From IMG/VR virus record IMGVR_UViG_3300030021_000027: DNA of 13,114 nt; one strand, written 5' to 3'. Numbering within the stretch: the stretch's first letter is position 1; each line of letters starts with the position of its first letter. The notes below the pieces were generated by a model. The model worked only from the letters and a program-made list of their open reading frames with translations, was not told the DNA's origin and made no database searches. The DNA is from a virus (Duplodnaviria; Heunggongvirae; Uroviricota; Caudoviricetes). Made by a program: the position numbers and the translations under genes. Shown piece by piece: positions 1 through 13,114 of this stretch.

Positions 1-318
1 TACTGGCGAGAAACACGCCTTTTTCAGATAACTTGATCATTAAATGCTCCAGATATCTGCGCACCGTGAAGTGCGCAAAAAGATAATAAATGGATATACT
101 CTAAATAATTCGAGTTGCAGGAAGGCGACAAGCGAGTGAATCCCCAGGAGCTTACATAAGTAAGTGACTGGGGTGAGCGAACGCAGACGCAGCACATGCA
201 ACTCAAATTATTTAGAGTATATCCATTTATTATCTTTCTGCGCACTTCACGGTGCGCAGATATCTGGAGCATTTGATGATCAAGTTATCTGAAAAAGGCG
301 TGTTTCTCGCCAGTAATA
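1..318. repeat. ERIC/IRU-like element embedded in a long imperfect palindrome (arms about 1-115 and 201-318)
   Basis: Core at 136-179 contains both classic ERIC primer target sequences (GTGAATCCCCAGGAGCTTACAT and AAGTAAGTGACTGGGGTGAGCG). Positions 1-43 are the exact reverse complement of 276-318, and 61-110 is the reverse complement of 206-255 with one mismatch. Confidence 0.8.
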
Positions 319-2537
319 ACGAAATAATTGCTGAAGAACATTTCACCGGCGAAATTAAAAAAGAAGAAGCCAAAAAAGGCACTATTGCCTGGTCTATTCT
401 CTCTTCGCATAATACGTCCGGAAATATGGATAAACTTAAAATTAAGTTTGATTCATTAGCCTCTCACGATATTACCTTTGTTGGTATTGTACAGACCGCT
501 AAAGCGTCCGGTATGGAACGTTTCCCGCTGCCGTATGTGCTGACCAACTGCCATAACTCACTCTGCGCCGTCGGCGGCACCATTAACGGTGATGACCATG
601 TTTTTGGTTTATCGGCAGCTCAGCGTTATGGCGGTATTTTTGTGCCTCCGCATATTGCGGTCATCCATCAATATATGCGTGAGATGATGGCAGGCGGCGG
701 CAAAATGATCCTCGGGTCAGACAGCCACACCCGTTACGGTGCATTAGGGACAATGGCAGTCGGTGAGGGCGGTGGTGAGTTGGTAAAACAGCTGCTTAAT
801 GACACTTGGGATATCGACTATCCGGGAGTTGTTGCGGTGCATCTGACCGGAAAACCAGCGCCGTATGTGGGGCCGCAGGATGTGGCGCTGGCTATCATTG
901 GCGCGGTGTTCAAAAACGGTTACGTCAAAAACAAAGTCATGGAGTTCGTTGGACCGGGCGTTAGCGCGCTCTCTACCGATTTCCGTAACAGCGTTGACGT
1001 GATGACCACGGAAACCACCTGTTTAAGCTCCGTCTGGCAAACTGATGAAGAAGTGCATAACTGGCTGGCGCTGCACGGTCGCGGCCAGGATTACTGCCAG
1101 CTTAACCCTCAACCGATGGCGTACTACGATGGCTGCATCAGCGTTGATTTAAGCGCCATCAAACCAATGATTGCGCTGCCGTTCCACCCGAGCAACGTGT
1201 ATGAAATCGACACACTGAACCAGAACCTGACCGACATTCTGCGTGAGATTGAAATTGAGTCCGAACGCGTGGCGCACGGTAAAGCCAAACTCTCGCTGCT
1301 GGATAAAGTGGAAAATGGTCGCCTGAAAGTGCAGCAGGGGATTATCGCGGGCTGTTCTGGCGGTAACTACGAAAACGTCATCGCGGCGGCGAATGCACTG
1401 CGCGGTCAATCCTGTGGCAATGACACCTTCTCGCTGGCAGTTTACCCGTCATCACAGCCGGTGTTTATGGATCTCGCCAAAAAAGGTGTGGTAGCAGATT
1501 TGATTGGCGCAGGCGCAATCATCAGAACCGCGTTCTGCGGCCCATGCTTTGGCGCGGGCGATACGCCAATCAACAACGGATTAAGTATTCGCCACACCAC
1601 GCGTAACTTCCCGAACCGCGAAGGCTCTAAGCCAGCTAATGGGCAGATGTCAGCGGTGGCGTTGATGGACGCTCGTTCTATCGCTGCGACTGCGGCAAAC
1701 GGTGGCTATTTAACCTCTGCCAGCGAACTTGATTGCTGGGACAACGTGCCGGAGTACGCCTTCGATGTAACGCCGTATAAAAACCGTGTTTATCAGGGCT
1801 TTGTGAAAGGGGCAACTCAGCAACCGCTGATTTACGGACCGAACATTAAAGACTGGCCGGAATTGGGTGCGCTGACTGACAATATCGTCCTGAAAGTGTG
1901 CTCGAAGATCCTCGACGAAGTGACCACCACCGACGAACTGATTCCTTCCGGTGAAACCTCTTCTTATCGTTCAAATCCGATTGGTCTGGCGGAGTTTACC
2001 CTGTCACGCCGCGATCCCGGTTATGTTGGCAGAAGTAAAGCGACTGCTGAGCTGGAAAATCAGCGTCTGGCGGGGAATGTCAGCGAGCTGACAGAGGTGT
2101 TTGCGCGCATTAAGCAGATTGCTGGTCAGGAGCATATTGATCCGCTGCAAACTGAAATTGGCAGCATGGTATATGCGGTGAAACCAGGCGATGGTTCTGC
2201 GCGTGAACAGGCGGCGAGCTGCCAGCGTGTGATTGGCGGTCTGGCGAATATTGCCGAAGAGTACGCGACTAAACGCTACCGTTCTAACGTCATCAACTGG
2301 GGGATGTTACCGCTGCAGATGGCGGAAGTGCCAACCTTTGAAGTGGGGGATTACATTTACATCCCTGGCATTAAAGCGGCGCTGGATAATCCGGGTACGA
2401 CGTTTAAAGGTTATGTGATCCATGAAGATGCGCCGGTAACGGAAATTACGCTCTATATGGAAAGTCTGACTGCTGAAGAGCGCGAGATTATCAAGGCGGG
2501 TAGTTTGATTAACTTCAATAAAAACCGTCAGATGTAA
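276..2537 (+). CDS. ybhJ: Aconitase-family protein YbhJ (753 aa from ATG at 276; the track ORF begins at an upstream GTG at 252)
   Basis: Long ORF whose translation ([18 protein letters not shown]...) I recognise as E. coli YbhJ. GGAG lies 7 nt upstream of the ATG at 276. Host-like GC content and synteny with ybhC and the att site. Confidence 0.88.
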
Positions 2538-2552
2538 AAAGCGCCATGTGAA

Positions 2553-2663
<111 letters not shown>

Positions 2664-2678
2664 AATAGTTAATAGCTC

Positions 2679-3962
2679 TTACTTCTTCGCCTCTGCAACC
2701 ACTTTACTACCCACGCCGCGGTTATTGTATTCCCACATGCGGTTGTAGTTAGTGTCATTCAGATTGCGCTGTATTTCGTCGTTATCATCTACGCTGCCGG
2801 TATTACCCGCAAACGGACGATTAGAGATCACCGCATCGGCCCACGGTTTAGCCGTGTTAAAACCTTCGTTGATGGCGCTATCACGGATCACCACCTGACC
2901 GTTGGTATTGGCATCAACATCCAGCGAGCGGCCCAGTTGCGCCACACCATCACCGAAAGCATTGAAACGGCTGTTTACGGCGAGGAAACCGTAGTAAATG
3001 TTGGACAGCGTAGCCGGTGCAAACACATACGCTTCTTGCTGAGTACGTGAGTTCACCACGCGGAATTCGGTGTTATCGAACACCACTGCGCCGCGACCAG
3101 AAACGATATCCACATCCCCTTCAATGTAGCTGTTGGTCACCAGCGTACGCGGCTGACGGTTGGTTTCCAGACGGTTCTGCACACCGCTGTTGGTGACAAA
3201 GAAGGTGTTCTGACGACCGAGAATGTTAACGTTGTTAATCTGTACCTGGTCACCATCAGTACGCAGTGCCACCGCCGGATGGTTACCTGCATCTACGCTA
3301 TCGCCCAGCGTGTTTTCGATGGTCAGATTTTGCAGTTGCAGGCCATTGTTTTGTGACCAGAAGACCGCAGAGCAGAGAACACCGATACTGTCGCTGCGTT
3401 TGCTCTGGCAGCTATCGTACATATACCACGCTGGTTTACCTGGCATATATTTGCCGCGCGGGTTGACGTCGTGACGCCAGTCGGCAGGGCTCATGCCCCC
3501 ATCAAGGGAAAGCCCAATCTTCACATCAATCGGTTTTTCACCTGTACCGTACAGAGTAATTCCACCCGGAGCAGCAGGGACATACACCGTTCCCTGATAC
3601 TCACCAGGCATCACGGCAATATACTGGCGCTTGTTAGTGCGCTTGATAATTGCCGCATCTACCGCCGCCTGAATCGTGGTATGCGTTACACCTTGAGTAC
3701 CCGCCGGGCCGACAACAAAGTCAGGTTGCGCAGGCAGGGTAATCGGGGAAGGATTCCACGCTGCAGCACCTGGTGTCAGGGATGCAAAATAGTGTTGAGC
3801 ATCGAAATTCTGCGCTTCTTTTGCCGACAGAATCGGGCGAGAAGAGGTACCAGGCGCGGTTTGATCAGAAGGACGTTGATCGGGTGGTGTTGAGCTACAG
3901 GCGGTCAGCGTCACGCCAAAAGCCAATGCCAGCGCCAGACGGGAAACTGAAAATGTGTTCAC
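2679..3962 (-). CDS. ybhC: Outer-membrane lipoprotein YbhC (pectinesterase-like / acyl-CoA thioesterase family), 427 aa
   Basis: ORF translation begins MNTFSVSRLALALAFGVTLTACSS with a lipobox (LTAC). Recognised as YbhC, the gene that flanks attB-lambda in E. coli. Confidence 0.9.
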   Translation of the reverse strand: MNTFSVSRLALALAFGVTLTACSSTPPDQRPSDQTAPGTSSRPILSAKEAQNFDAQHYFASLTPGAAAWNPSPITLPAQPDFVVGPAGTQGVTHTTIQAAVDAAIIKRTNKRQYIAVMPGEYQGTVYVPAAPGGITLYGTGEKPIDVKIGLSLDGGMSPADWRHDVNPRGKYMPGKPAWYMYDSCQSKRSDSIGVLCSAVFWSQNNGLQLQNLTIENTLGDSVDAGNHPAVALRTDGDQVQINNVNILGRQNTFFVTNSGVQNRLETNRQPRTLVTNSYIEGDVDIVSGRGAVVFDNTEFRVVNSRTQQEAYVFAPATLSNIYYGFLAVNSRFNAFGDGVAQLGRSLDVDANTNGQVVIRDSAINEGFNTAKPWADAVISNRPFAGNTGSVDDNDEIQRNLNDTNYNRMWEYNNRGVGSKVVAEAKK

Positions 3963-3994
3963 AGGTTGCTCCGGGCTATGAAATAGAAAAATGA

Positions 3995-4100
3995 ATCCGT
4001 TGAAGCCTGCTTTTTTATACTAAGTTGGCATTATAAAAAAGCATTGCTTATCAATTTGTTGCAACGAACAGGTCACTATCAGTCAAAATAAAATCATTAT
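3995..4100. other. attL: Phage lambda attL (B-O-P'): bacterial B arm, 15-bp core at 4009-4023, P' arm with Int arm-type sites
   Basis: Core GCTTTTTTATACTAA at 4009-4023 is preceded by attB-type sequence (CCGTTGAAGCCTGC) and followed by lambda P' arm sequence (GTTGGCATTATAAAAAAGCATTGCTTATCAATTTGTTGCAACGAACAGGTCACTATCAGTCAAAATAAAATCATT) running into the int 3' end. Confidence 0.9.
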
Positions 4101-5167
4101 TTGATTTCAATTTTGTCCCACTCCCTGCCTCTGTCATCACGATACTGTGATGCCATGGTGTCCGACTTATGCCCGAGAAGATGTTGAGCAAACTTATCGC
4201 TTATCTGCTTCTCATAGAGTCTTGCAGACAAACTGCGCAACTCGTGAAAGGTAGGCGGATCCCCTTCGAAGGAAAGACCTGATGCTTTTCGTGCGCGCAT
4301 AAAATACCTTGATACTGTGCCGGATGAAAGCGGTTCGCGACGAGTAGATGCAATTATGGTTTCTCCGCCAAGAATCTCTTTGCATTTATCAAGTGTTTCC
4401 TTCATTGATATTCCGAGAGCATCAACATGCAATACTGTTGGGATGGCAATTTTTACGCCTGTTTTGCTTTGCTCGACATAAAGATATCCATCTACGATAT
4501 CAGACCACTTCATTTCGCATAAATCACCAACTCGTTGCCCGGTAACAACAGCCAGTTCCATTGCAAGTCTGAGCCAACATGGTAATGATTCTGCTGCTTG
4601 ATAAATTTTCAGGTATTCGTCAGCCGTAAGTCTTGATCTCCTTACCTCTGATTTTGCTGCGCGAGTGGCAGCGACAGGGTTTGTTGTTATATGGCCTTCA
4701 GCTATTGCCTCTCGGAATGCATCGCTCAGTGTTGATCTGATTAACTTGGCTGACGCCGCCTTGCCCTCGTCTATGTATCCATTGAGCATTGCCGCAATTT
4801 CTTTTGTGGTGATGTCTTCAAGTGGAGCATCAGGCAGACCCCTCCTTATTGCTTTAATTTTGCTCATGTAATTTATGAGTGTCTTCTGCTTGATTCCTCT
4901 GCTGGCCAGGATTTTTTCGTAGCGATCAAGCCATGAATGTAACGTAACGGAATTATCACTGTTGATTCTCGCTGTCAGAGGCTTGTGTTTGTGTCCTGAA
5001 AATAACTCAATGTTGGCCTGTATAGCTTCAGTGATTGCGATTCGCCTGTCTCTGCCTAATCCAAACTCTTTACCCGTCCTTGGGTCCCTGTAGCAGTAAT
5101 ATCCATTGTTTCTTATATAAAGGTTAGGGGGTAAATCCCGGCGCTCATGACTTCGCCTTCTTCCCAT
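4097..5167 (-). CDS. int: Lambda-type tyrosine integrase Int, 356 aa
   Basis: Translation MGRRRSHERRDLPPNLYIRNNGYYCYRDPRTGKEFGLGRDRR... matches phage lambda Int over its full length by my recall. It is adjacent to attL and transcribed toward it, as in a lambda prophage. Confidence 0.97.
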   Translation of the reverse strand: MGRRRSHERRDLPPNLYIRNNGYYCYRDPRTGKEFGLGRDRRIAITEAIQANIELFSGHKHKPLTARINSDNSVTLHSWLDRYEKILASRGIKQKTLINYMSKIKAIRRGLPDAPLEDITTKEIAAMLNGYIDEGKAASAKLIRSTLSDAFREAIAEGHITTNPVAATRAAKSEVRRSRLTADEYLKIYQAAESLPCWLRLAMELAVVTGQRVGDLCEMKWSDIVDGYLYVEQSKTGVKIAIPTVLHVDALGISMKETLDKCKEILGGETIIASTRREPLSSGTVSRYFMRARKASGLSFEGDPPTFHELRSLSARLYEKQISDKFAQHLLGHKSDTMASQYRDDRGREWDKIEIK

Positions 5168-5363
5168 TTCTGATCCTCTTCAAAAGGCTACCTGTTACTG
5201 GTCGATTTAAGTCAACCTTTACCGCTGATTCGTGGAACAGATACTCTCTTCCATCCTTAACCGGAGGAGGGAATATCCTGCACTCGCGTACCCATCGACG
5301 AACTGTTTCAAGGCTTCTTGGGCGTCGCTGGCGTGCGTTCCACTCCTGAAGTGTCAAGTACAT
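5145..5363 (-). CDS. xis: Lambda-type excisionase Xis, 72 aa
   Basis: Translation MYLTLQEWNARQRRPRSLETVRRWVRECRIFPPPVKDGREYLFHESAVKVDL... It overlaps the int start by 23 nt, as in lambda. Confidence 0.95.
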   Translation of the reverse strand: MYLTLQEWNARQRRPRSLETVRRWVRECRIFPPPVKDGREYLFHESAVKVDLNRPVTGSLLKRIRNGKKAKS

Positions 5364-5389
5364 CGCAAAGTCTCCGCAATTACACGCAA

Positions 5390-5412
5390 GAAAAAACCGC
5401 CATCAGGCGGCT
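5390..5412 (-). terminator. Candidate rho-independent terminator (minus strand) at the 3' end of the orf55-like gene
   Basis: Minus-strand GC stem (GCCGCC/GGCGGT, 4-nt loop) followed by a run of six T (plus-strand A-tract 5391-5396). Confidence 0.4.
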
Positions 5413-5570
5413 TGGTGTTCTTTCAGTTCTTCAATTCGAATATTGGTTACGTCTGCATGTGCTATCTGCGCCCATATCATCCAGTGGTTATAACAGTCGT
5501 TGATGTTCTCTGCTTCGATAACCCTGTTGAATGGCTCTCCATTCCATTCACCTGTGACTCGGAAGTGCAT
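5403..5570 (-). CDS. Small lambdoid early-left ORF (55 aa, lambda orf55-like); not in the supplied ORF track
   Basis: My own translation of the minus strand gives MHFRVTGEWNGEPFNRVIEAENINDCYNHWMIWAQIAHADVTNIRIEELKEHQAA. GGAG lies 7 nt upstream of the ATG at 5570. Position immediately upstream of xis matches lambda organisation. Confidence 0.55.
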   Translation of the reverse strand: MHFRVTGEWNGEPFNRVIEAENINDCYNHWMIWAQIAHADVTNIRIEELKEHQAA

Positions 5571-5583
5571 TTATCATCTCCAT

Positions 5584-5607
5584 AAAACAAAACTCGCCGT
5601 AGCGAGT
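5584..5607 (-). terminator. Candidate rho-independent terminator (minus strand) downstream of the 142-aa gene
   Basis: Inverted repeat ACTCGC-CGTA-GCGAGT followed on the minus strand by TTTGTTTT. Confidence 0.45.
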
Positions 5608-5653
5608 TCAGATATAATTTCCACCAAAGGCAGTAGTTGCTTGATGCTAAGAA

Positions 5654-6082
5654 TTATTCAATATCTATTCCTGTAATATCTTTTATCTTTTTCCTTGCAA
5701 AGCCTTTTGCTAGTGATTTTGAAACACTCATAAGTGTACTAATTCCCTCATCCTTAAAGTTTGTTTTTATAGCTTGCCAGACATCCTTTTGACGTAAGTC
5801 AGCAATAAAATCATGCCCTCTTGCTGTCAACCTCAGTGGTACTTCGATCCAACTATATCCAACACCTTCCCCTAACGCTTTGGACAATATATGACCGAAC
5901 CCAGGTTTTCCATCAACCCTGACTATTAATTCGTAGTCACATAATAATCGCATATGGAAAATAAAATCTTGGTCATATCTATTAAAGCCATTATCCTCTA
6001 GTTCACTAAGCATCGTGTCAGGGCCACGAGTTTTTTCGAATGCGATAAGTAGATCTTTTAGATATTGCTGGTCTAATTTCAT
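5654..6082 (-). CDS. Hypothetical protein, 142 aa (phage accessory gene, function unknown)
   Basis: ORF with strong RBS (GGAGG, 5-nt spacer) before the ATG at 6082. AT-rich relative to flanks. No family recognised by eye. Confidence 0.7.
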   Translation of the reverse strand: MKLDQQYLKDLLIAFEKTRGPDTMLSELEDNGFNRYDQDFIFHMRLLCDYELIVRVDGKPGFGHILSKALGEGVGYSWIEVPLRLTARGHDFIADLRQKDVWQAIKTNFKDEGISTLMSVSKSLAKGFARKKIKDITGIDIE

Positions 6083-6110
6083 TGCCGCCTCCGTGACATG
6101 TCACAGAGAT

Positions 6111-6449
6111 TTATATCATTAATTTTGTTTCGTGCCAGCCTTTGGTCACCCAGCATTGTGAGTCACCATTACACGGGCATGAATTAACAGGAACTCTCTC
6201 GCCGCACTTACCGCACCGTTTTCTGCTGATCGATTTTATACGCCAGCGCACACGTGCATCATCCTGGCGGCTCAGTAACGCGATGTACTCACCAAACTCG
6301 CAAGGCGCACGCCTGAAGCGACGCGTGGCACAGTTACGCTCCAGCATTTCAATTTCCTGAGCATCAAGTACAAGCTCCAGCTTACGCATACCGGATGATG
6401 CTTGCTTGGCTCTCTGATCGGCTTTGTGCTCTGTTGCTGATTTAGCCAT
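6111..6449 (-). CDS. Hypothetical protein, 112 aa, with a C-terminal Cys-rich (zinc-ribbon-like) region
   Basis: ORF with AGGAAA RBS about 7 nt upstream of the ATG at 6449. C-terminus reads RKRCGKCGERVPVNSCPCNGDSQCW. Ends 28 bp upstream of the 142-aa gene, suggesting an operon. Confidence 0.65.
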   Translation of the reverse strand: MAKSATEHKADQRAKQASSGMRKLELVLDAQEIEMLERNCATRRFRRAPCEFGEYIALLSRQDDARVRWRIKSISRKRCGKCGERVPVNSCPCNGDSQCWVTKGWHETKLMI

Positions 6450-6645
6450 TCTGCTTTTCCTGCATCAGGAGAAAGACAATCATGGCGGCGCGGATACTTC
6501 CGGTATCTTTTTACGCGATATTCCCCTTCAATGGCACATACAAGAAGAGAGCCATCAACAGGAGTGATTGAGGAATCGACAACCAGCAACGCTTAATTAT
6601 CTATAGTGTCGTATTTGCTTCATAAAATATGGCGAATAACACAAA

Positions 6646-6677
6646 GCCCGCAGCAGCTCATTGTGCGGGCTTTTCTT
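6646..6677. terminator. Candidate bidirectional rho-independent terminator separating the two-gene cassette from the secreted-protein gene
   Basis: 7-bp GC-rich stem (GCCCGCA/TGCGGGC) followed by TTTTCTT on the plus strand and a weaker T-rich tail on the minus strand. Confidence 0.5.
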
Positions 6678-6742
6678 ATACCTACTTCCTAGAGATAATT
6701 CTATGGAGGCATTAAATCAATACTGTCATTGGTAATATCATA

Positions 6743-7357
6743 TTATCTAAAAGTCTTTCCACTTTTAACATCTAGGTATATTCTGTTCGACAACGTCATT
6801 CCTCCGCAATATGTGAAATAGATGTTTTCACCCTTATTGCTTGATGCCATCCACCCTCCGATTTCCTTAAAATCGCTTTCCGTGCAGACCCCTTCATTTA
6901 TTAACTTCCTAGCTGCCGAAGAAAACTCTTTTTTGTATATACGGTAGTCATCAGATCCTTTGATTAAAGTATCATCTCCGCTCGCATTTTCAGCAGGATC
7001 TGATGGCCTTTCACTGCTAAGATCACTAAGTTTAACCCATTCTGAAAACTTGCCATTAACGATTCCATTTTTTCTTGTGCAGGATTTATTACCTTCTTTA
7101 ATATATTCGCTTTCCCCTCCAACACATGAGGCTGAATATGGCTCAGTTATACGAACCCATTCACCTTTTTTTTCTAGAAAATCTACGCCTTCCCTGAAAA
7201 ATAGTTTCCCAGCCACTCCACATTTACTTGAAGGGCAGGTATGTCTTTCCGTTTGATCAACAACAACCCATAGTTTTGATTCATTTTTTGCCATTGCCGA
7301 TGGTATTTGAGATGAGACAATTAACGTAAGCCCTAAAATTAGTATTGATTTTTTCAT
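6743..7357 (-). CDS. Secreted Cys-rich hypothetical protein, 204 aa (signal peptide, probable SPase I site after AMA)
   Basis: N-terminus MKKSILILGLTLIVSSQIPSAMA-KNES is a typical Sec signal peptide with no lipobox. Six Cys in the mature part. AAGGAA RBS before the ATG. Very AT-rich gene with a terminator downstream. Confidence 0.75.
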   Translation of the reverse strand: MKKSILILGLTLIVSSQIPSAMAKNESKLWVVVDQTERHTCPSSKCGVAGKLFFREGVDFLEKKGEWVRITEPYSASCVGGESEYIKEGNKSCTRKNGIVNGKFSEWVKLSDLSSERPSDPAENASGDDTLIKGSDDYRIYKKEFSSAARKLINEGVCTESDFKEIGGWMASSNKGENIYFTYCGGMTLSNRIYLDVKSGKTFR

Positions 7358-7496
7358 TGTAATTTCCTTTTACTTTTTACAAAGCGTTTAATCATGGCTG
7401 ATTATCTCTAAGTGTAGTAACAGCCTTGTGCGAAACATGTTACCAAATCGCCATTTCAGTGTATCCGCAGTTAGGCTGCCACTTCAAGGATTCCTA

Positions 7497-7907
7497 ATTA
7501 CATGGTACGTAAGCGTAAAATCCCGTTGGTTGGCGGGTAATAACTCTGATCAAATCTCCCTTGTCTTTTGCTCTTACGTATGCAGCTCTTGTGTATTCAA
7601 CCCAGGCCTCCAGTTCAGCAATACGCTTACTTCCATCCGAGATAACACCTTCTACTCACGCTGCTCGTTGAGTTTTGATTTTTGCTGTCTCCAGCTCAAC
7701 ACGCAGTTTCCCCACCGTTAGCGCAATATCCTCGTTCTCCTGGTCGCGGCGTTTGATGTATTGCTGGTTTCTTTCCCGTTCATCCAGCAGTGTCAGCACA
7801 ATCGATGGTGTTACCAGCTCATGGAAAAGGTCCGCGTCAAATCCCCAGTTGTCAGGCATTGCCTGCTCTGCCGCTTCACGCAGTGCCTGAGAGTGAATTA
7901 CGCTCAC
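7497..7907 (-). pseudogene. Early-left hypothetical gene interrupted by an in-frame TGA (83 codons, TGA at 7656-7658, then 53 in-frame codons)
   Basis: The 83-aa ORF (7656-7907) ends at TGA. The same frame continues for 53 codons (VEGVISDGSKRIAELEAWVEYTRAAYVRAKDKGDLIRVITRQPTGFYAYVPCN) with no ATG/GTG/TTG start codon of its own, ending at TAG 7494-7496. Confidence 0.5.
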
Positions 7908-8125
7908 TTCGAACCTCTCTGTTTACTGATAAGCTCCAGATCTTCCTGGCAACTTGCACAAGTCCGACAACCCTGAACGGCCAGGCGTCTTAGCTCATCT
8001 ATGGGATCGCCACACTCACAACAATGAGTGGCAGATACAGCCTGGTGGTTCAGGCGGCGCATTTTTATTGCTGTGTTGCGCTGTAATTCTTCAATTTCTG
8101 ATGCTGAATCAATGATGTCTGCCAT
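7904..8125 (-). CDS. TraR/DksA-family C4 zinc-finger protein, 73 aa (lambda Orf73-like)
   Basis: Translation has the CxxC-x17-CxxC motif (CCECGDPIDELRRLAVQGCRTCASC) and the size typical of TraR-like phage proteins. Its stop overlaps the next gene's start (ATGA). Confidence 0.85.
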   Translation of the reverse strand: MADIIDSASEIEELQRNTAIKMRRLNHQAVSATHCCECGDPIDELRRLAVQGCRTCASCQEDLELISKQRGSK

Positions 8126-8178
8126 CTTCCATTAATCCCTGAATTGTTGGTTAATACGCTTGGGGGTAAATGCGAGCA

Positions 8179-8201
8179 ATAAAAAAGGAGCCTGTAGCTC
8201 C
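8179..8201 (-). terminator. Weak candidate terminator (minus strand) between the orf61-like and TraR-like genes
   Basis: Short GGAGC/GCTCC stem followed by a run of six T on the minus strand. Confidence 0.3.
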
Positions 8202-8223
8202 CTGATAATTTTGCTTTTCATGT

Positions 8224-8439
8224 TCATCGTTCCTTAAAGACGCCGTTTAACATGCCGATTGCCAGGCTTAAATGAGTCGGTGTGAATCCCATCAGCGTTA
8301 CCGTTTCGCGGTGCTTCTTCAGTACGCTACGGCAAATGTCATCGACGTTTTTATCCGGAAACTGCTGTCTGGCTTTTTTGATTTCAGAATTAGCCTGACG
8401 GGCAATGCTGCGAAGGGCGTTTTCTTGCTGAGGTGTCAT
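8224..8439 (-). CDS. Lambdoid early-left small ORF (orf61-like), 71 aa from ATG 8439; the track ORF extends to 8505
   Basis: Protein-like translation MTPQQENALRSIARQANSEIKKARQQFPDKNVDDICRSVLKKHRETVTLMGFTPTHLSLAIGMLNGVFKER, directly downstream of orf63 as in lambda. The N-terminal extension from 8505 looks non-coding. Start choice is uncertain. Confidence 0.6.
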   Translation of the reverse strand: MTPQQENALRSIARQANSEIKKARQQFPDKNVDDICRSVLKKHRETVTLMGFTPTHLSLAIGMLNGVFKER

Positions 8440-8707: not shown

Positions 8708-8817
8708 ACAGCCCCCCGTTTATTATTTATCTCCTCAGCCAGCCGCTGTGCTTTCAGGGGATTTCTGATAACAGAAAGGCCGGGAAATATCTGGCTGAAA
8801 GAGGGGGTTATTAAGGC

Positions 8818-9180
8818 GTGAATACCTACAGCATCACATTACCCTGGCCTCCGAGCAATAATCGCTATTACCGCCATAATCGCGGGCGCACGCACGTCAG
8901 CGCAGAGGGGCAGGCATACCGCGATAACGTCGCCCGAATCATTAAAAACGCAATGCTGGATATCGGCCTGACTATGCCTGTGAAAATCCGCATTGAGTGC
9001 CACATGCCGGATCGCCGTCGCCGTGACCTGGATAATCTGCAAAAAGCCGCTTTTGACGCACTCACTAAAGCAGGTTTCTGGCTGGATGATGCTCAGGTCG
9101 TTGATTACCGCGTTGTGAAGATGCCTGTTACCAAAGGTGGGAGGCTGGAACTGACCATCACCGAAATGGGGAATGAATGA
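8818..9180 (+). CDS. rusA: Holliday-junction resolvase RusA (crossover junction endodeoxyribonuclease), 120 aa, GTG start
   Basis: Translation [47 protein letters not shown]... is near-identical to E. coli DLP12 RusA by my recall. GAGGGGG RBS upstream. Confidence 0.95.
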
Positions 9181-9317
9181 TGTTTGAGTTTAATATGGCA
9201 GAACTTCTTCGCCACCGCTGGGGGCGTCTGCGCTTATATCGTTTCCCCGGTTCTGTTTTGACCGATTACCGAATACTGAAGAATTACGCCAAAACACTGA
9301 CAGGAGCAGGAGTATGA
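9180..9317 (+). CDS. ylcG: Small nin-region protein YlcG-like, 45 aa; not in the supplied ORF track
   Basis: My own translation gives [45 protein letters not shown]. Its start overlaps the rusA stop (TGATG arrangement), conserved with DLP12 rusA-ylcG. Confidence 0.75.
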   Translation: MFEFNMAELLRHRWGRLRLYRFPGSVLTDYRILKNYAKTLTGAGV

Positions 9318-9402
9318 AGTCAGAGATAACAATCAACTAATACTGTTTTGTTGATTTTTGCTTGTAATTGGCGTTCTGGTCTGAGTTTTGTGGAGTAAGT
9401 TG

Positions 9403-9780
9403 ATGCGTGATATTCAGATGGTTCTTGAGCGTTGGGGAGCGTGGGCGGCTAATAATCATGAAGATGTGACCTGGTCGTCCATTGCCGCCGGTTTTAAGGG
9501 ATTAATTCCTTCAAAAGTAAAATCTCGCCCACAATGTTGTGACGATGACGCGATGATCATTTGCGGGTGCATGGCCCGTCTGAAAAAGAACAACAGCGAT
9601 TTGCATGATTTATTGGTGGACTATTATGTCGGCGGCATGACTTTTATGGCGCTTGCACGTAAGCATGGGCGATCTGATTGTTGGGTTGGCAGGATGCTTC
9701 AGAAAGCTGAGGGCGTAGTGGAGGGTATGCTGATGGTGTTGGATCTCCGATTGGAGATGGATGCTGATTGTTCGAAATAA
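9403..9780 (+). CDS. quuD: Q-type late-gene antiterminator (QuuD / phage 21 Q-like), 125 aa from ATG 9403; the track ORF starts at TTG 9388
   Basis: Translation [67 protein letters not shown]..., recognised as DLP12 QuuD-like. GGAG lies 8 nt upstream of the ATG. Confidence 0.85.
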
Positions 9781-9789
9781 TTAAAGGAA

Positions 9790-9875
9790 AAGTTGCTGTC
9801 TGATTGTCATTAGTCTAACATTTTAAATGTTGGAATCGCAACGTAGTTATTATCATATAACAGCTTGTTTCCTGA
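9790..9875 (+). promoter_or_regulatory. Candidate late promoter pR' with Q-utilisation region (exact -35/-10 not resolved)
   Basis: Immediately downstream of the Q gene. Sigma70-like hexamers present (TTGCTG, 17 nt, TAACAT; alternatively TTGGAA ... TATCAT). 15-bp inverted repeat AACATTTTAAATGTT. Followed by a strong terminator, as for lambdoid pR'-tR'. Confidence 0.4.
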
Positions 9876-9880
9876 TTTAG

Positions 9881-9907
9881 CCAGCCTCCCCAAAGGCTGG
9901 TTTTTTT
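9881..9907 (+). terminator. Strong rho-independent terminator (tR'-like) downstream of the Q gene
   Basis: CCAGCCT-CCCCAA-AGGCTGG perfect 7-bp stem followed by a run of seven T. Confidence 0.8.
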
Positions 9908-9935
9908 CTAATAAGTATTATTTCGGGTAGGGATT

Positions 9936-10460
9936 TTATTGTTTAACCCATAATAATTCATTGACATTGAATCCCAACTTTTGAGCGGTTCGCACATAGT
10001 CTGCTTTTACTTTATCTGGAATAGTTGGGGTCCTTGCCAGAATCCATAGGTATTCTCTGTTCGGACCACTGACAAGAGCATACTTATACTCATCATCCAG
10101 TTTGATTACATTATAGCCACCATAGAAGGGGCCAAAAAACGAAACCTTCAATGCTGCAGTTTTAGTATCTCCAGTAAAGTATGCTTTACCTTCGCTCTCG
10201 CTCCATTTATTTTTCGTTGGATCGTATCCACGGTTAAGTACACGAATCCCTCCGTCGTTCCGTTTTCCATAAGTAGCGCTGACCTGTTCCAGACCACGTT
10301 CGAACCGGTTCTCGAGGCGAGCTATTTCATACCATTTTCCGAGGTAGCGGTTGGCGTCAAAATTTGTAATCGGCTGCACACCTTTAGGTGGTGTCGGGGC
10401 CTTACATGCTATAAGAGTGAAAGAGAGTGCAATGCCAGTCAACACAGGCCATAACTTCAT
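9936..10460 (-). CDS. Bacterial lipocalin Blc-like outer-membrane lipoprotein, 174 aa
   Basis: Lipoprotein signal MKLWPVLTGIALSFTLIAC (lipobox LIAC). Mature region (FDANRYLGKWYEIARLENRFERGLEQVSATY...KAYFTG...ALKVSFFGPFYGGYNVI...EYLWILARTP) is clearly homologous to E. coli Blc but divergent. Confidence 0.85.
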   Translation of the reverse strand: MKLWPVLTGIALSFTLIACKAPTPPKGVQPITNFDANRYLGKWYEIARLENRFERGLEQVSATYGKRNDGGIRVLNRGYDPTKNKWSESEGKAYFTGDTKTAALKVSFFGPFYGGYNVIKLDDEYKYALVSGPNREYLWILARTPTIPDKVKADYVRTAQKLGFNVNELLWVKQ

Positions 10461-10652
10461 AATAAATCCTGTACTTTTGATAGTTGAGAGTAAGTATGAA
10501 AGATAGATGATTACGACCGATCACTTAAAGAACTTTCATACTATATTAGGAATAGTCCATAACAGAAAAATTGTCAGTGATGACGCCAGAAAGGCAATTT
10601 ATTCCGTGCACTACACAGTTTATGTGTTAATGAATTAGTCAAGGGGGAGAAT

Positions 10653-11612
10653 ATGATAAAAAAACCTGTGATTGGAATCAGCGGTTGTTTGGCCGGTTCT
10701 GCTGTTCGTTTTGATGGTGGTCACAAAAGAGCTGACTTTTTAATGGACAAATTAGTGGAATGGGTAACATTCAGACCAGTATGTCCGGAAATGGCTATAG
10801 GGCTGCCAGTTCCGCGTCCTGCTCTACGTCTTGTGCGCTCGACGCAAGGAAATATACGGATGTGTTTCAGCCACGACCAGAATGAGGATGTGACAGAGAG
10901 AATGACAGAGTTTAGTCGTTCTTATATGGACAAATTAAAGGATGTATCGGGGTTTGTGGTTTGTGCTAAATCTCCCAGCTGTGGCATGGAGCGCGTGCGT
11001 GTCTATGATGAAAATGGTAATCGAGGTCGTAAAGATGGAGTGGGACTATTTACGAGCACTTTGATGGAAAAGTTTTCCTGGCTACCGGTTGAAGAGGATG
11101 GGCGATTACATGATCCAGTGCTTCGTGAGAATTTTGTTGAAAGAGTTTTTGCTTTGCATGAGCTCAATCACCTTTACAAGGAGAAATTATCAAGAAGAGA
11201 GTTATTAGCTTTTCATAGTCGTTATAAGCTTCAGTTGTTGGCGCATAGTCAGGCAGGCTATAAAGATATGGGACCATTTGTGGCTGCAATACACGAGTGG
11301 GCGGACCTTGAATCATACTTTGAGGTGTATCGTGATAAGCTGATGGCGATTCTCAGAAAACCTGCATCACGTAAAAATCACACGAATGTGCTGATGCATA
11401 TACAGGGGTATTTTAGTAACTACTTAAGTACACGCCAGCGTAAAGAGTTGAGCGAGGTTATACTTAACTATCGTTCTGGCACATTACCTCTTCTTGCGCC
11501 GTTGACTCTGCTGAAGCATTATCTGGGTGAGTATCCTAATGATTACTTGCTTACACAGAATTACTTCGATCCCTATCCGGACGAACTGGCTCTAAGACTG
11601 ATGGTAAATTAA
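10653..11612 (+). CDS. DUF523 (TudS-like thiouracil desulfidase fold) / DUF1722 (YbgA-like) fusion protein, 319 aa
   Basis: N-terminus MIKKPVIGISGCLAGSAVRFDGGHKR with conserved Cys residues typical of DUF523. The C-terminal half resembles YbgA-type DUF1722. Strong RBS AAGGGGGAG. Family assignment is from memory, not a search. Confidence 0.8.
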   Translation: MIKKPVIGISGCLAGSAVRFDGGHKRADFLMDKLVEWVTFRPVCPEMAIGLPVPRPALRLVRSTQGNIRMCFSHDQNEDVTERMTEFSRSYMDKLKDVSGFVVCAKSPSCGMERVRVYDENGNRGRKDGVGLFTSTLMEKFSWLPVEEDGRLHDPVLRENFVERVFALHELNHLYKEKLSRRELLAFHSRYKLQLLAHSQAGYKDMGPFVAAIHEWADLESYFEVYRDKLMAILRKPASRKNHTNVLMHIQGYFSNYLSTRQRKELSEVILNYRSGTLPLLAPLTLLKHYLGEYPNDYLLTQNYFDPYPDELALRLMVN

Positions 11613-11963
11613 TTGTATGCGATATCATCCAAAAGGATGAGTTCCTGCATGCAGGATATTTACAATCGTAAAAACTACACTATGATACCCAGAGTGTCAG
11701 TTTGTATAAAAACTCTGTTTACGCTGAAGAAACAATTGAGATGCAACTTAAAGTTGGTAAACATGCCAGTCAAAATATATAATATTATGATTCCACGCAG
11801 CTATATATAATATAACGGATTGGTTTAATAATTTGTCTTTGTGAGTTAAATACATAATTTTATACTTGTGATGCAATGAAATTTTCCTTATTGTTGAACT
11901 GGCGAATATTGATTTTCCACCTATACTTACCTGGTGTAACCCCAATGATATCAGGTGGATAAT

Positions 11964-12695
11964 ATGCCATACATATGTTCTATCATTTTGGTGTTGAACT
12001 CGTTTGATGTCCGAATTGGTAAAGAAGATATTTTGTTTAAAAAAGGAAGTGCTGTTCTCATTGATTACAATTTAAAAGATTTTTTTTCATCAAATATAGA
12101 TCATGTAATGATCGTAGATGTTGAAGAGAAAACAGTTAATGATTTCTTTAAAAGCAACACACTCTCACCTTTTTCTGTAAGAAGGTTTTATCCGGCATAC
12201 TTGATGGTGGAATGTGAAGATTTTTCATTGTTAAAGAACTTGATTGCATGCTTGAATTGTGATGGCAGAACTGTGGATTTTGTTAGAAATCAAATATCAC
12301 TTGCATGTCTTGCTATCTTATCTTCAGAGAAAATAGTGCAAAGTTTTTTATTTGGATGTCTTAATAGTTTAGGAAGTAAAGTTAAGGCTATTATTCACAC
12401 GGATATATCTGCAGCATGGAGACTTTGTGATATATCTTCAAGACTGTATCTGAGTGAAAGTCTGTTAAAAAGAAAATTAAAGCACGAAGGCTTATCATTT
12501 AGTAAGTTAATTCTTGAAGAGCGAATGGTGATGGCGGAAAGGTTATTAAGCTACAATTTATATTCTGTTGGAAAAGTTGCTGAGATATGCGGTTATGAAA
12601 ACACGTCATATTTTGTAAGTGTTTTCAGAAGGTATTTTGGTGTTCCTCCCCATCAATATTCATCAAGATTTTTTTTAGAAAAAGACATGATGTAA
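11964..12695 (+). CDS. AraC-family transcriptional regulator, AppY/EnvY-like, about 243 aa (the track ORF starts at GTG 11955)
   Basis: N-terminus MPYICSIILVLNSFDV resembles AppY (MDYVCSVVFICQSFDL). C-terminal AraC-type helix-turn-helix (ICGYENTSYFVSVFRRYFGVPPHQY). AGGTGG RBS upstream. Preceded by a 340-bp extremely AT-rich region. Confidence 0.85.
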   Translation: MPYICSIILVLNSFDVRIGKEDILFKKGSAVLIDYNLKDFFSSNIDHVMIVDVEEKTVNDFFKSNTLSPFSVRRFYPAYLMVECEDFSLLKNLIACLNCDGRTVDFVRNQISLACLAILSSEKIVQSFLFGCLNSLGSKVKAIIHTDISAAWRLCDISSRLYLSESLLKRKLKHEGLSFSKLILEERMVMAERLLSYNLYSVGKVAEICGYENTSYFVSVFRRYFGVPPHQYSSRFFLEKDMM

Positions 12696-12882
12696 CGTGA
12701 TGCGTTTTAATGATTTTGTAATTTTCGTATTTGATAATTGTATGATGCTTTCAGCTACGCCAGAATAATCGCGGCGTTTTTCTTTTTGAATAGATGTTCA
12801 AGCCTTACGCTAATGTAACTTCTATACCTTTCCTCTTCGTTCCGAACCGTGTACACCATCCGTTATTTGCGGAGGTGAGGCT

Positions 12883-13098
12883 ATGAAATCCATGGATAAG
12901 TTAACAACGGGCATTGCCTACGGCACCTCCGCAGGCAGTGCTGGCTACTGGTTTTTACAGTTGCTCGATAAAGTCACGCCCTCACAGTGGGCAGCAATAG
13001 GTGTGCTGGGTAGCTTGGTATTTGGCCTGCTGACGTACCTGACAAACCTTTATTTCAAGATTAAAGAAGATAAGCGCAAGGCTGCGAGAGGTGAATAA
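12883..13098 (+). CDS. essD: Phage-21-type class II holin (pinholin S21 / EssD-like) with dual-start motif, 71 aa
   Basis: Translation [71 protein letters not shown]. Met1 and Met4 are separated by Lys-Ser (antiholin/holin dual start). GGAGG RBS. Confidence 0.9.
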
Positions 13099-13114
13099 TG
13101 CCTCCATCATTACG
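13098..13114 (+). CDS. rrrD: 5' end of endolysin gene (SAR-endolysin R21 / RrrD-like), truncated by the window edge
   Basis: ATG overlaps the holin stop (TAATG). The first codons MPPSL match the N-terminus of phage 21 / DLP12 lysozyme. Only 17 nt are visible. Confidence 0.5.

Follow-up and report, generated by a model that had tools for sequence, protein, structure and literature searches.

A common lipocalin-rudS-araC cargo cassette in the Q-holin interval of lambda-like Escherichia coli prophages

Introduction

The interval between the Q antiterminator and holin genes of the prophage studied here carries a cassette that is a real and very common passenger of lambda-like Escherichia coli prophages, present in about 1,000 of 5,426 complete E. 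coli genomes (18-20%). In the window, by which we mean the whole stretch of 13,114 nucleotides that was analysed, the order of genes is Q, a minus-strand lipocalin gene, a plus-strand gene for a fusion of TudS and DUF1722 domains (rudS), a plus-strand gene for an AraC/XylS-family regulator (araC), and the holin gene. We consider it probable that this is a composite "moron" cassette of two modules, situated in the late-operon leader of QuuD/EssD-type lambdoid phages. The first module, the divergent lipocalin(-)/rudS(+) pair, would have been taken jointly from a MerR-linked chromosomal locus with loss of the MerR gene, and the second, the very AT-rich gene of the AraC-family regulator, would stem from a pool of prophage-borne PatE/Psr/GadW-like regulators. 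All three genes are members of families that have already been described, and the cassette is therefore ordinary, though under-studied, cargo.

Results and Discussion

An exchangeable segment between Q and the holin

The left anchor of the cargo is Q (positions 9403..9780, plus strand), a 125-aa antiterminator of the QuuD type (PF06530, E 2.5e-51) with 87.5% amino acid identity to QuuD of K-12, and the right anchor is the holin gene S of the EssD/P21 type (12883..13098, plus strand; PF04971, E 2e-35). Alignment to DLP12 of K-12 covers only positions 8788-9762 and 12872-13114, so that homology ends 18 nt upstream of the Q stop codon and restarts 11 nt upstream of the holin ATG, at the ribosome-binding site of S, leaving 9763..12871 as an exchangeable cargo segment. 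A previous sequence-only reading of this DNA had described an AT-rich block between Q and the holin, in the position occupied by Stx genes or nmpC in related phages. The block, 9763-12871, has a GC content of 38.2% as a whole and of 32-35% in its intergenic parts, compared with 51-53% for the flanking chromosomal genes ybhJ and ybhC and 45% for the left arm of the prophage. The positional claim is literally correct, because the DLP12 homology breaks at 9762/12872 with nmpC lying between, and the segment is thus swapped for nmpC. The open reading frames were also placed correctly, and their domains score above curated cut-offs.

As expected of a moron of the Q-S interval, the segment is situated after Q/pR' and before the holin gene, and phages that are otherwise homologous lack it at this site. 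Its slot is identical to that of nmpC in DLP12 and of stxAB with its tRNA genes in Stx phages, and the first cargo gene is encoded on the minus strand in both DLP12 (nmpC) and the window (lipocalin). Unlike that cargo, however, the cassette consists of different genes, with no toxin, porin or tRNA among them; no tRNA genes were found in the cargo interval, and no Rfam family reached its gathering score within it.

The full block was recovered at a coverage of at least 80% from 992 genomes and 12 phage records, and all three genes occur together in about 990 genomes. Of the 5,426 genomes, 1,083 have an intact Q-lipocalin junction and 986 an intact araC-holin junction, figures close to the totals for genomes with the genes anywhere; across E. 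coli, the three genes are practically always joined to Q and S. The same Q type is found without the cassette in about 2,080 genomes. Sequenced phage carriers include IdasGreatGrand, Lambda_2E9 and 1H12, and every one of the 12 phage records shows the order Q, lipocalin(-), rudS, araC, holin, while strain 101EVA carries the same prophage with its full gene complement. The agreement between junction and gene counts, together with the carriage of the cassette by phages, identifies it as phage cargo at a Q-S hot spot and not as a chromosomal island, as the earlier reading had proposed.

The lipocalin belongs to a second enterobacterial lineage

The first cargo gene (9936..10460, minus strand) encodes a Blc-type outer-membrane lipocalin lipoprotein of 174 aa (PF08212, E 7e-44). 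It scores 316 bits against the NCBIfam Blc subfamily model NF007786 (cut-off 267), and Blc in the PDB matches it with an E value of 3.5e-69. By inspection, the signal peptide reads MKLWPVLTGIALSFTLIAC/KAPT, with the lipobox LIAC and Lys at position +2, and the +2 residue not being Asp is in line with outer-membrane sorting. The earlier identification as a Blc-like lipocalin lipoprotein on the minus strand is upheld by the subfamily score and the lipobox. The protein resembles E. coli Blc (PDB 1QWD, 2ACO, 3MBT) in its Lipocalin_2 fold and its lipoprotein signal peptide with lipobox. Chromosomal Blc, however, adjoins ampC, and the cassette lipocalin is only 60% identical to it, as against 77-82% to the lipocalins of MerR/rudS loci in other enterics; it represents a second lipocalin lineage, which is paired with MerR and rudS in those organisms. 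Mathieu et al. (2020, PMC6969025) list blc among the prevalent lambda morons, with a frequency of >50% in their infant-gut lambda phages; the gene that they counted is the same as the cassette lipocalin gene. The gene runs convergent with late transcription, and a -10-like CATACT was noted, by eye only, about 35 nt upstream of its ATG.

The fusion protein is the tRNA desulfidase RudS by its sequence

The second gene (10653..11612, plus strand) encodes 319 aa in which PF04463 (residues 7-149, E 3e-40) and PF08349 (residues 192-309, E 2e-40) are both found far above cut-off in one polypeptide, in agreement with the DUF523-DUF1722 fusion recognised before. The cluster cysteines Cys12, Cys44 and Cys110 are present at the positions given for RudS_vir and RudS_ST, as are the catalytic residues Glu46 and Ser107-x-Ser109. 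Judged by these residues and domains, the protein is RudS, a [4Fe-4S] tRNA 4-thiouridine (s4U) desulfidase. It shares the two-domain architecture, the length of 319 aa, the three cluster cysteines and the catalytic Glu and Ser-x-Ser with RudS_vir of phage 1H12 and with RudS_ST of Salmonella (ORF319/STM1389). Amino acid identity is 93.4% to 1H12 gp66 (RudS_vir), encoded by the same cassette in that sister phage, and 70-77% to chromosomal RudS of enterobacteria; over every chromosomal copy compared, the range is 66-77%. Chromosomal RudS genes lie downstream of a MerR regulator, whereas the phage copy does not.

Expression of RudS_vir in E. coli lowers tRNA s4U (Jamontas et al., NAR 2024, PMC11417400); the enzyme was among the less active RudS proteins assayed, by over-expression only, and RudS_KT shortened the UVA growth delay in the same study. 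That work states that E. coli is without RudS and does not discuss prophages. It also corrects the thiolated-nucleobase substrate previously suggested for the DUF523 protein, as the substrate of RudS is s4U in tRNA and not free thiolated bases (PMC11417400). Nor is the cassette without precedent as a described cargo set, as had been supposed, since blc is already a listed lambda moron and rudS of 1H12 has been tested experimentally.

The regulator is related to prophage-borne and acid-resistance regulators

The third gene (11964..12695, plus strand) encodes an AraC/XylS-family regulator of 243 aa (PF12833 and PF00165) from the PatE/GadW/YdeO/AppY clade. The start is placed at ATG 11964, which has a GGTGG Shine-Dalgarno sequence; the longest open reading frame begins at GTG 11955. 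In size, in its N-terminal "CSVI" start and in the C-terminal double helix-turn-helix characteristic of the family (PF12833, PF00165), the protein resembles GadW, GadX, YdeO, AppY and PatE, but it is the orthologue of no characterised member of this group. Its identity is 34% to GadW, 32% to AppY and 32% to YdeO. Among full-length NCBIfam models, YdeO fits best but stays under its threshold (127 bits, cut-off 348), and GadX scores 85 bits (cut-off 500). We therefore rejected an assignment as AppY, GadX or YdeO orthologue, given 32% identity to AppY and model scores so far below cut-off; the AraC family named in the earlier reading stands, while its AppY label is loose. The nearest solved structure is the DNA-binding domain of GadX (E 2.5e-20), followed by Rns, CsvR and ToxT.

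A higher identity, 54%, was found to WP_000246059.1, a prophage AraC protein of O157, a value that is no guarantee of common targets. The O157 gene maps to a small cryptic prophage followed by a P4-like element and then pao/ecp/ykg genes, and by this map position only the protein is probably PatE (z0321); no source names WP_000246059.1 as PatE, and none names the cassette AraC protein. Like the cassette araC, the genes for PatE, PsrA and PsrB of EHEC O157:H7 and AppY of DLP12 are prophage-borne and very AT-rich. Homologues unaccompanied by lipocalin or rudS are encoded in mEp332, at the right end, and in an Stx2k phage, between Q and stx; the Stx2k homologue is 39% identical to the cassette protein. 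Characterised relatives act on host acid-resistance promoters.

Position of rudS and araC relative to the late transcript

As had been pointed out from the sequence, the two plus-strand genes are situated between Q/pR' and S, in the path of late transcription. A candidate late promoter pR' (TTGCTG-17 nt-TAACAT; 9793..9821, plus strand) was read from the sequence as a weak match to the consensus; in the 1H12 allele the -35 element is identical and the -10 element keeps TAnnnT. A consensus promoter scan did not pick 9793..9821, and the position of pR' is for this reason not settled; both pR' candidates match the consensus poorly. Downstream of Q, DLP12 and the window share only the 9-mer ATATAACAG, though Q is nearly the same. 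Directly 3' of Q lies an intrinsic terminator (9879..9911, plus strand), a candidate tR' with a 9-bp stem including five GC pairs and a run of seven T; no other strong terminator-like site was found between 9300 and 13114. The leader fold has a z score of -3.8, and the 1H12 allele, although diverged, has exactly the same hairpin.

Promoter-like sites are seen upstream of both plus-strand genes: one at 10484-10511 (plus strand) in the divergent intergenic region before rudS, and others in the AT-rich untranslated region 5' of araC (11613..11963, plus strand, 32% GC). The latter include TTTACA-16-TATGAT at 11659-11686 (10/12), inside a stretch conserved between alleles; the remainder of the region is 67% conserved, with indels. 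Such sites are not enriched over shuffles (13 found versus 10.5 +/- 3.4 expected). A weak terminator-like hairpin with a U-run, seen in the sequence 3' of araC (12757..12788, plus strand), is conserved in 1H12, where its stem is better. Since shuffled sequences fold as stably (z = 0.31), we treat it only as a candidate terminator. The DLP12 homology resumes only at 12872, so S has no conserved promoter in front of it, and late transcription would consequently have to cross rudS and araC.

In a lysogen, RNA polymerase would initiate at pR' just 3' of Q and halt at the 9879-9911 hairpin. Once Q is made, polymerase would read through the hairpin, and the resulting transcript would cover the lipocalin gene in antisense, and rudS and araC in sense, before reaching S-R-Rz and the structural genes. 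Such Q-dependent read-through in the sense direction would cause rudS and araC to be co-expressed with the late genes. Each gene probably also has a weak promoter of its own in the lysogen.

The lipocalin-rudS pair has a chromosomal counterpart

We examined 41 Enterobacterales rudS loci. rudS lies downstream of a MerR gene in 30 of them, and in 22 a divergent lipocalin gene is found upstream, in the same arrangement as in the phage. The chromosomal locus consists of lipocalin(-), a MerR/MlrA-like gene (+), a SnoaL-SDR-amine oxidase-DUF1365-CFA-synthase-like-DUF2878-DUF3833 block (+) and rudS(+). Its two end genes, in the same orientation and encoding 174 and 319 aa, correspond to the first module of the cassette, whereas the MerR gene and the lipid-modification operon have no counterpart in the phage. 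The place of the MerR gene is taken by a divergent intergenic region of 192 bp (10461..10652, 34% GC), which is 90% conserved between alleles and for which similarity to chromosomal intergenic regions was not found. In three loci (L020, L044, L053) no MerR gene was detected between lipocalin(-) and rudS(+), and the gap in one MerR-less locus is 187 bp, compared with 192 bp in the phage. DNA identity between the enterobacterial locus and the phage is about 70%. Joint capture is proposed from synteny; no particular lineage is evident as the donor, and the intergenic DNA of phage and chromosomes is unrelated. The phage probably took lipocalin and rudS together, and the MerR gene was lost. The putative source locus is present in many Enterobacterales and missing from E. 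coli.

These observations bear on the view, implicit in the sequence-only reading, that the cassette is made up of three unrelated lysogenic-conversion morons. In that case each would be expressed from its own promoter in the lysogen for the benefit of the host, with the late transcript incidental and no functional link between the genes. The AT-rich upstream regions with promoter-like sites before rudS and araC are consistent with this view, as are the different composition of araC (31.8% GC, versus about 43.5% for the lipocalin/rudS module), its faster divergence than the other two genes, its homologues in phages without lipocalin or rudS, and the treatment of blc in the literature as a stand-alone moron (PMC6969025). 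We nevertheless consider it unlikely, as 22 of the 41 chromosomal loci show lipocalin and rudS in synteny with their orientation preserved, the pair is nearly always together in E. coli (1,048 genomes with the pair versus 1,083 with the Q-lipocalin junction), and the lack of a conserved promoter for S would take late transcription across rudS and araC. Taken as a whole, the earlier interpretation was right about the location of the cargo, but its novelty, its AppY label and its unrelated genes are not borne out.

A functional link of another kind would exist if the AraC protein stood in for the MerR regulator that was lost, governing the divergent promoters of lipocalin and rudS and perhaps late transcription as well. 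The absence here of the MerR gene found between lipocalin and rudS on chromosomes, the position of araC as sole regulator gene of the cassette and the co-occurrence of the three genes in about 990 genomes would fit such a mini-regulon. We find it improbable, however, since araC lies downstream of the pair and not between its members, has a separate composition and looks separately acquired. In addition, no MerR or AraC gene was detected near the chromosomal pairs of L020, L044 and L053, and the acid-resistance promoters on which characterised AraC relatives act belong to the host.

The cassette is often dispensable and is under purifying selection

Many cassette copies reside in decayed prophages, that of this window included, or are hit by IS insertions. 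IS2 and IS1 have inserted between lipocalin and rudS in other strains, IS2 lies in the upstream region of araC in strain J6, and rudS is truncated in E. coli B. With so many copies decayed, IS-interrupted or truncated, the cassette is often dispensable. Between the two main alleles (dS 0.2-0.36), dN/dS is 0.06 for the lipocalin gene, 0.11 for rudS and 0.26 for araC, indicating purifying selection on all three genes.

The frequent insertions and truncations, the many defective prophages and the high AT content would suit a neutral, H-NS-silenced hitch-hiker that persists only since the Q-S interval tolerates insertions. Against this stand the activity of the sister-allele enzyme RudS_vir (PMC11417400), the dN/dS values at this level of synonymous divergence and the existence of intact copies in sequenced phages as well as in about 1,000 genomes, which together make neutrality very improbable. 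Defence genes are frequent at prophage moron sites and tRNA is a common battleground, but apart from this general precedent an anti-phage defence or superinfection-exclusion module has next to no plausibility, since none of the three proteins matches PADLOC models and each has homologues with ordinary housekeeping or regulatory roles.

Implications for phage and host

For the two-module cassette that we favour, the role in phage biology would follow from the predicted activities of its products. RudS would strip the sulfur of s4U8 from host tRNA, and with s4U8 lost, UVA would cause less tRNA cross-linking, a smaller growth delay and a weaker stringent response. The lipocalin, a lipoprotein, would be sent to the outer membrane, and the AraC protein probably rewires host acid-stress genes of the gadE/hdeA type.

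A more specific proposal, which we regard as doubtful, is that RudS is a phage auxiliary gene product and not a host-benefit moron, keeping translation going for virion production under sun or UV. Because rudS is sense-oriented in the Q-antiterminated late transcript, RudS would be made when a UV-damaged lysogen is induced. Erasure of the s4U8 photosensor would then prevent UVA cross-linking, accumulation of uncharged tRNA and the stringent response, and the lipocalin would be a co-captured partner from the ancestral MerR-linked stress locus. If this is true, it would be the first temperate phage found to safeguard its burst by editing a tRNA modification of the host, and about one fifth of E. 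coli strains would differ in near-UV physiology through a prophage.

The understanding of lambdoid cargo in general is unchanged by these findings. The prophage AraC regulators, known from EHEC for reprogramming type III secretion as well as acid resistance, gain another, uncharacterised member with the cassette, and the lipocalin-rudS partnership in a conserved MerR-linked locus places the second enterobacterial lipocalin, which is poorly understood, in a context. Since about 1 in 5 complete E. coli genomes has a prophage-borne RudS, the statement that E. coli lacks an s4U eraser is true for K-12 but not for the species, and differences between strains in UVA growth delay or in s4U may trace to prophage RudS.

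Boundaries of the cassette

The left third of the window is E. coli chromosome, with ybhJ (252-2537, plus strand) and ybhC (2679-3962, minus strand), and genes for a lambda-type integrase (4097-5167, minus strand) and an excisionase (5145-5363, minus strand) follow at the classical lambda attachment site. The right part carries rusA (8818-9180), a QuuD-type Q (9403-9780) and a P21/EssD-type holin gene, S (12883-13098). The three open reading frames that the sequence-only reading had placed between Q and the holin are confirmed, all with strong Pfam matches: a lipocalin (9936-10460, minus strand), a fusion of TudS (DUF523) and DUF1722 domains (rudS; 10653-11612, plus strand) and an AraC-family protein (11964-12695, plus strand). 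GC content is 38.2% in the Q-holin interval, 31.8% in araC, 32-35% in the non-coding parts and 51-53% in the adjacent chromosomal genes.

Alignment to the K-12 prophage DLP12 runs from rusA through 9762, 18 nt before the Q stop codon, and resumes at 12872, 11 nt before the holin ATG, which defines the exchangeable segment as 9763-12871. DLP12 carries nmpC between the two breakpoints, so the block does lie in the Stx/nmpC slot, as had been proposed. A tRNA scan found none in the interval, unlike Stx phages, an Rfam scan of 9300-13114 at a permissive threshold gave only sub-threshold chance matches, and PADLOC models found no defence-system match for the cassette. All three proteins belong to existing PHROG families of unknown function.

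Several strains carry IS2, IS5, IS1 or IS3 in or beside the cassette, in AT-rich intergenic regions where the position was checked. IS2 lies between lipocalin and rudS in strain PK8566 (corresponding to 10461-10652 of the window); strain J6 has IS5 between Q and lipocalin (9781-9935) and IS2 between rudS and araC (11613-11963); and IS1 and IS3 are also among the annotated features under the cassette matches. Insertion elements seem to favour the AT-rich DNA between the genes.

Distribution in E. coli genomes and phages

We searched 5,426 complete E. coli genomes, counting matches that covered at least 80% of the query. The whole block was found in 992 genomes (1,156 with any match), the lipocalin-rudS pair in 1,048 and araC in 996, while a 601-nt probe over the Q-lipocalin junction matched 1,083 genomes and a 619-nt probe over the araC-holin junction 986. 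The cassette is thus present in 18-20% of complete E. coli genomes, and since junction counts equal gene counts, it is essentially always at the Q-S site. This Q type also occurs in about 2,080 further genomes, where the match for the most part ends at the 9762 breakpoint. Twelve phage records contain the cassette in unchanged gene order, with an identity of 99.3% in IdasGreatGrand and about 89% in the Jouyvirus group of infant-gut 'Lambda_' phages and 1H12; the prophage of the window is also found at the identical site in E. coli strain 101EVA, there with a full set of lambda genes. The possibility that these are common chromosomal genes of prophage-free strains, which the sequence-only reading had itself raised, does not agree with the junction probes, the 12 phages and 101EVA, all of which identify phage cargo; the junction and gene counts over genomes rule out a chromosomal origin in E. 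coli.

Compared with 101EVA, to which it is otherwise 99.99-100% identical, the prophage in the window lacks 9,023 bp, with the break at 8788/8789. The missing segment comprises exo, bet, gam, kil, cIII, the repressor gene cI, cro, cII, O, P, ren and most of nin, and the deletion fuses a truncated DUF1317 gene straight onto sequence just upstream of rusA. The window prophage is defective. Gene order at the deletion junction is the same in strain PK8566.

Two other features of the window were observed. Positions 1-119 are an inverted copy (97%) of 197-315, in the ybhJ 5' region, and 1-203 matches the reverse complement of a sequence that is single-copy in 101EVA; this pattern resembles a fold-back duplication at the start of the source contig and may be an assembly artefact. 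A second low-GC patch (36-40%) lies on the minus strand at 5654-7357, between xis and ea22-like genes, and encodes a DUF2513 protein (5654-6082, minus strand), a Cys-rich ORF of 112 aa (6111-6449, minus strand) and an ORF of 204 aa (6743-7357, minus strand) that has a signal-like N-terminus and matches no Pfam family; all three are candidates for further morons.

The middle gene encodes a RudS-type protein

Proteins with this TudS-DUF1722 architecture were described in 2024 under the name RudS: they are [4Fe-4S] desulfidases that restore uridine from 4-thiouridine (s4U) in tRNA. Six enzymes were assayed in that work, among them RudS_vir, which is gp66 of Escherichia phage 1H12 (PMC11417400). 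The gene for RudS_vir is the rudS of the same cassette in this sister phage. The window protein is 93.4% identical to RudS_vir and keeps Cys12, Cys44, Cys110, Glu46 and the Ser107-x-Ser109-Cys110 motif; judged from these residues and the overall identity, the middle cassette gene is RudS. Every RudS over-expressed in E. coli lowered tRNA s4U, RudS_vir being among the less active despite good solubility, and RudS_KT reduced the UVA-induced growth delay (PMC11417400). Because free thiouracils are poor RudS substrates (PMC11417400), the test of sensitivity to thiolated bases suggested in the sequence-only reading is aimed at the wrong substrate. It is rather unlikely that RudS keeps translation running for the phage in UV-induced cells. 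A literature search on RudS and prophages returned nothing besides the 2024 paper.

According to the same paper, E. coli lacks RudS and has just the stand-alone DUF1722 protein YbgA (PMC11417400), which is true of K-12 but untrue of about one fifth of strains. The phage gene as a copy of E. coli ybgA is ruled out, as K-12 YbgA has 169 aa, contains DUF1722 only and is 49% identical over that domain. YbgA aligns, at this identity, to RudS residues 164-315, and in K-12 (extracted locus 2093-4926) its gene lies between the H-repeat transposase gene ybfD, which immediately precedes it, and phr, which follows; K-12 ybgA could be a 5'-truncated former rudS-like gene.

E. coli B and BL21 have the Q-lipocalin junction and the lipocalin, with rudS reduced to its first ~150 nt, a remnant annotated as '2-thiouracil desulfurase family protein'. 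This bears on the published RudS assays, in which the host was BL21(DE3).

Chromosomal relatives of the lipocalin-rudS pair

The lipocalin scores above the curated NCBIfam cut-off for the Blc subfamily and matches solved E. coli Blc structures with an E-value of 3.5e-69. Its lipoprotein signal peptide ends in LIAC and is followed by Lys at position +2, so an outer-membrane lipoprotein is predicted. Mathieu et al. (2020) list 'blc, a bacterial lipocalin' among the morons in more than half of 19 infant-gut lambda phages (PMC6969025), and phages from that study are among our cassette matches; its supplements mention neither ybgA nor AraC (PMC6969025).

The lipocalin probe also gave 422 plasmid matches, and among those listed many fall on a lipocalin gene with 67% identity, carried by plasmids about 40-140 kb in size. 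This gene is presumably the blc that travels with Citrobacter-derived ampC (blaCMY), and is unrelated to the phage cassette.

The closest non-phage RudS proteins are chromosomal, from Citrobacter, Serratia, Enterobacter, Klebsiella and others (66-77% identity), and we annotated the flanks of 41 such rudS loci. A MerR/MlrA-like gene is upstream of rudS in 30 of them, and a divergent 174-aa lipocalin gene is found farther upstream in 22. In 12 of the 41 loci an operon of SnoaL, SDR, amine oxidase, DUF1365 and CFA-synthase-like genes, most also with DUF2878 and DUF3833, separates the MerR gene from rudS, while a short form, lipocalin (minus), MerR (plus), rudS (plus), is typical of Enterobacter, Leclercia and Serratia rubidaea. 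Three genomes have lipocalin (minus) and rudS (plus) with no MerR gene detected in between, and in one of these MerR-less arrangements, Citrobacter sedlakii, the lipocalin-rudS gap is 187 bp, versus 192 bp in the phage. The lipocalin of the cassette shares 77-82% identity with the lipocalins of rudS loci, as opposed to 60% with E. coli Blc. Homologues of Q, holin or the AraC protein were not found near rudS at any of the 41 loci. The simplest reading of this synteny would be that a phage took both end genes of the MerR-linked locus together. DNA identity between the phage and chromosomal pairs is only ~70%, with unrelated intergenic DNA, and no donor lineage stands out among the chromosomal relatives. 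A MerR remnant in the cassette is ruled out, as tblastn found none in the window.

It has been reported that rudS genes are often part of light-responsive operons controlled by MerR/LitR, and that rudS of Salmonella and E. cloacae adjoins a MerR gene (PMC11417400). Literature searches returned no paper on lipocalin, YbgA and prophage, or on DUF1365, lipocalin, photolyase, MerR and cyclopropane together. Citrobacter braakii ATCC 51113 has two rudS copies, each encoding a protein 76% identical to that of the phage: one ends a long MerR-SnoaL-SDR-amine oxidase-DUF1365-CFA synthase-like operon, and the other has none of the probed neighbours beside it.

The AraC-family regulator

The 243-aa AraC protein is 83% identical to the allele of the Lambda_2E9/1H12 group, 54% to a 247-aa AraC protein of E. 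coli O157:H7, 34% to GadW, and 32% to both AppY and YdeO. It falls far under the NCBIfam equivalog cut-offs for YdeO and GadX, and protein searches gave no named homologue after which to call it. The description 'AppY-like' therefore holds at the level of the clade and no further. The family is narrow and essentially limited to Escherichia, with relatives at both classical moron sites: the right genome end of mEp332 (53%) and the Q-stx interval of an Stx2k phage (39%). The O157 homologue ends a small cryptic prophage (tail fibre, pin, GIY-YIG, AraC), followed by a P4-like element and then pao/ecp/ykg genes; by map position, this is where z0321 (PatE, OI-8) would be expected. The prophage-encoded AraC-like proteins PatE, PsrA and PsrB switch on gadE/hdeA acid resistance and repress type III secretion indirectly; AppY of DLP12 likewise controls genes that belong to acid-resistance system AR2. 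By analogy, the AraC protein probably acts on host stress promoters, and its gene is probably silenced by H-NS.

In phage phiSTEC1575-Stx2k, the Q-S interval (extracted locus 2985-8316) likewise has regulators stacked in it. Its content is, in order, small ORFs, a TrmB-like regulator, the AraC-family gene whose product shares 39% identity with that of the window, three tRNAs, stx2AB and, on the opposite strand, an IraM-like anti-adaptor.

In a comparison of the two main alleles, the window type and that of the Lambda_2E9/1H12 group, the lipocalin gene has a dN/dS of 0.06, rudS one of 0.11 and araC one of 0.26 (dS 0.20-0.36). All three genes are maintained as coding genes. The faster divergence and the GC content of 31.8% suggest that araC has an origin separate from that of the lipocalin-rudS pair. 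Many cassette copies sit in decaying prophages.

Transcription signals

Upstream of S only the ribosome-binding site is common to the window and DLP12, which leaves S without a conserved promoter of its own; late transcription must enter from upstream, across the cargo. Across 9300-13114, just one site strongly resembles a terminator: a GC-rich hairpin of 9 bp followed by T7 at 9879-9911, about 100 nt past Q. The leader fold is more stable than shuffled sequences (z = -3.8), and the hairpin is identical in an allele that is otherwise ~10% diverged, features that fit tR', the terminator of the late promoter pR'. A consensus scan from Q to the terminator found no convincing pR', the candidate TTGCTG-17-TAACAT at 9793-9821 being conserved but weak, and the DNA downstream of Q shares with DLP12 only the 9-mer ATATAACAG, which is not significant for AT-rich DNA.

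In lambda, Q-modified polymerase reads through the terminator hairpin. Past the hairpin at 9879-9911, such a polymerase would transcribe the lipocalin gene in antisense and rudS and araC in sense, and would pass the weak hairpin after araC (12757-12788), which is no more stable than shuffled sequence, on into S. From their position and from lambda biology, we infer that rudS and araC are inside the late transcript. Promoter-like sites are present upstream of rudS (10484-10511) and of araC (11659-11686, in a conserved patch), and the frequency of such sites is no higher than in shuffled sequence.

Significance of the cassette

The cassette is real and had been correctly placed, yet among lambdoid moron cassettes it is ordinary, and most of it had been catalogued before. 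The suggestion that it is an undescribed cargo set was not borne out: blc is on record as a widespread moron of lambda phages and RudS_vir as an enzyme with tRNA s4U desulfidase activity, and prophage AraC regulators of the PatE/Psr/AppY type and PHROG families for all three proteins were likewise already known. What is new here is the exact boundaries of the cassette and its prevalence of 18-20% among complete E. coli genomes, the tie between lipocalin plus rudS and a MerR-associated chromosomal locus, and the inferred placement of rudS and araC within the late transcript.
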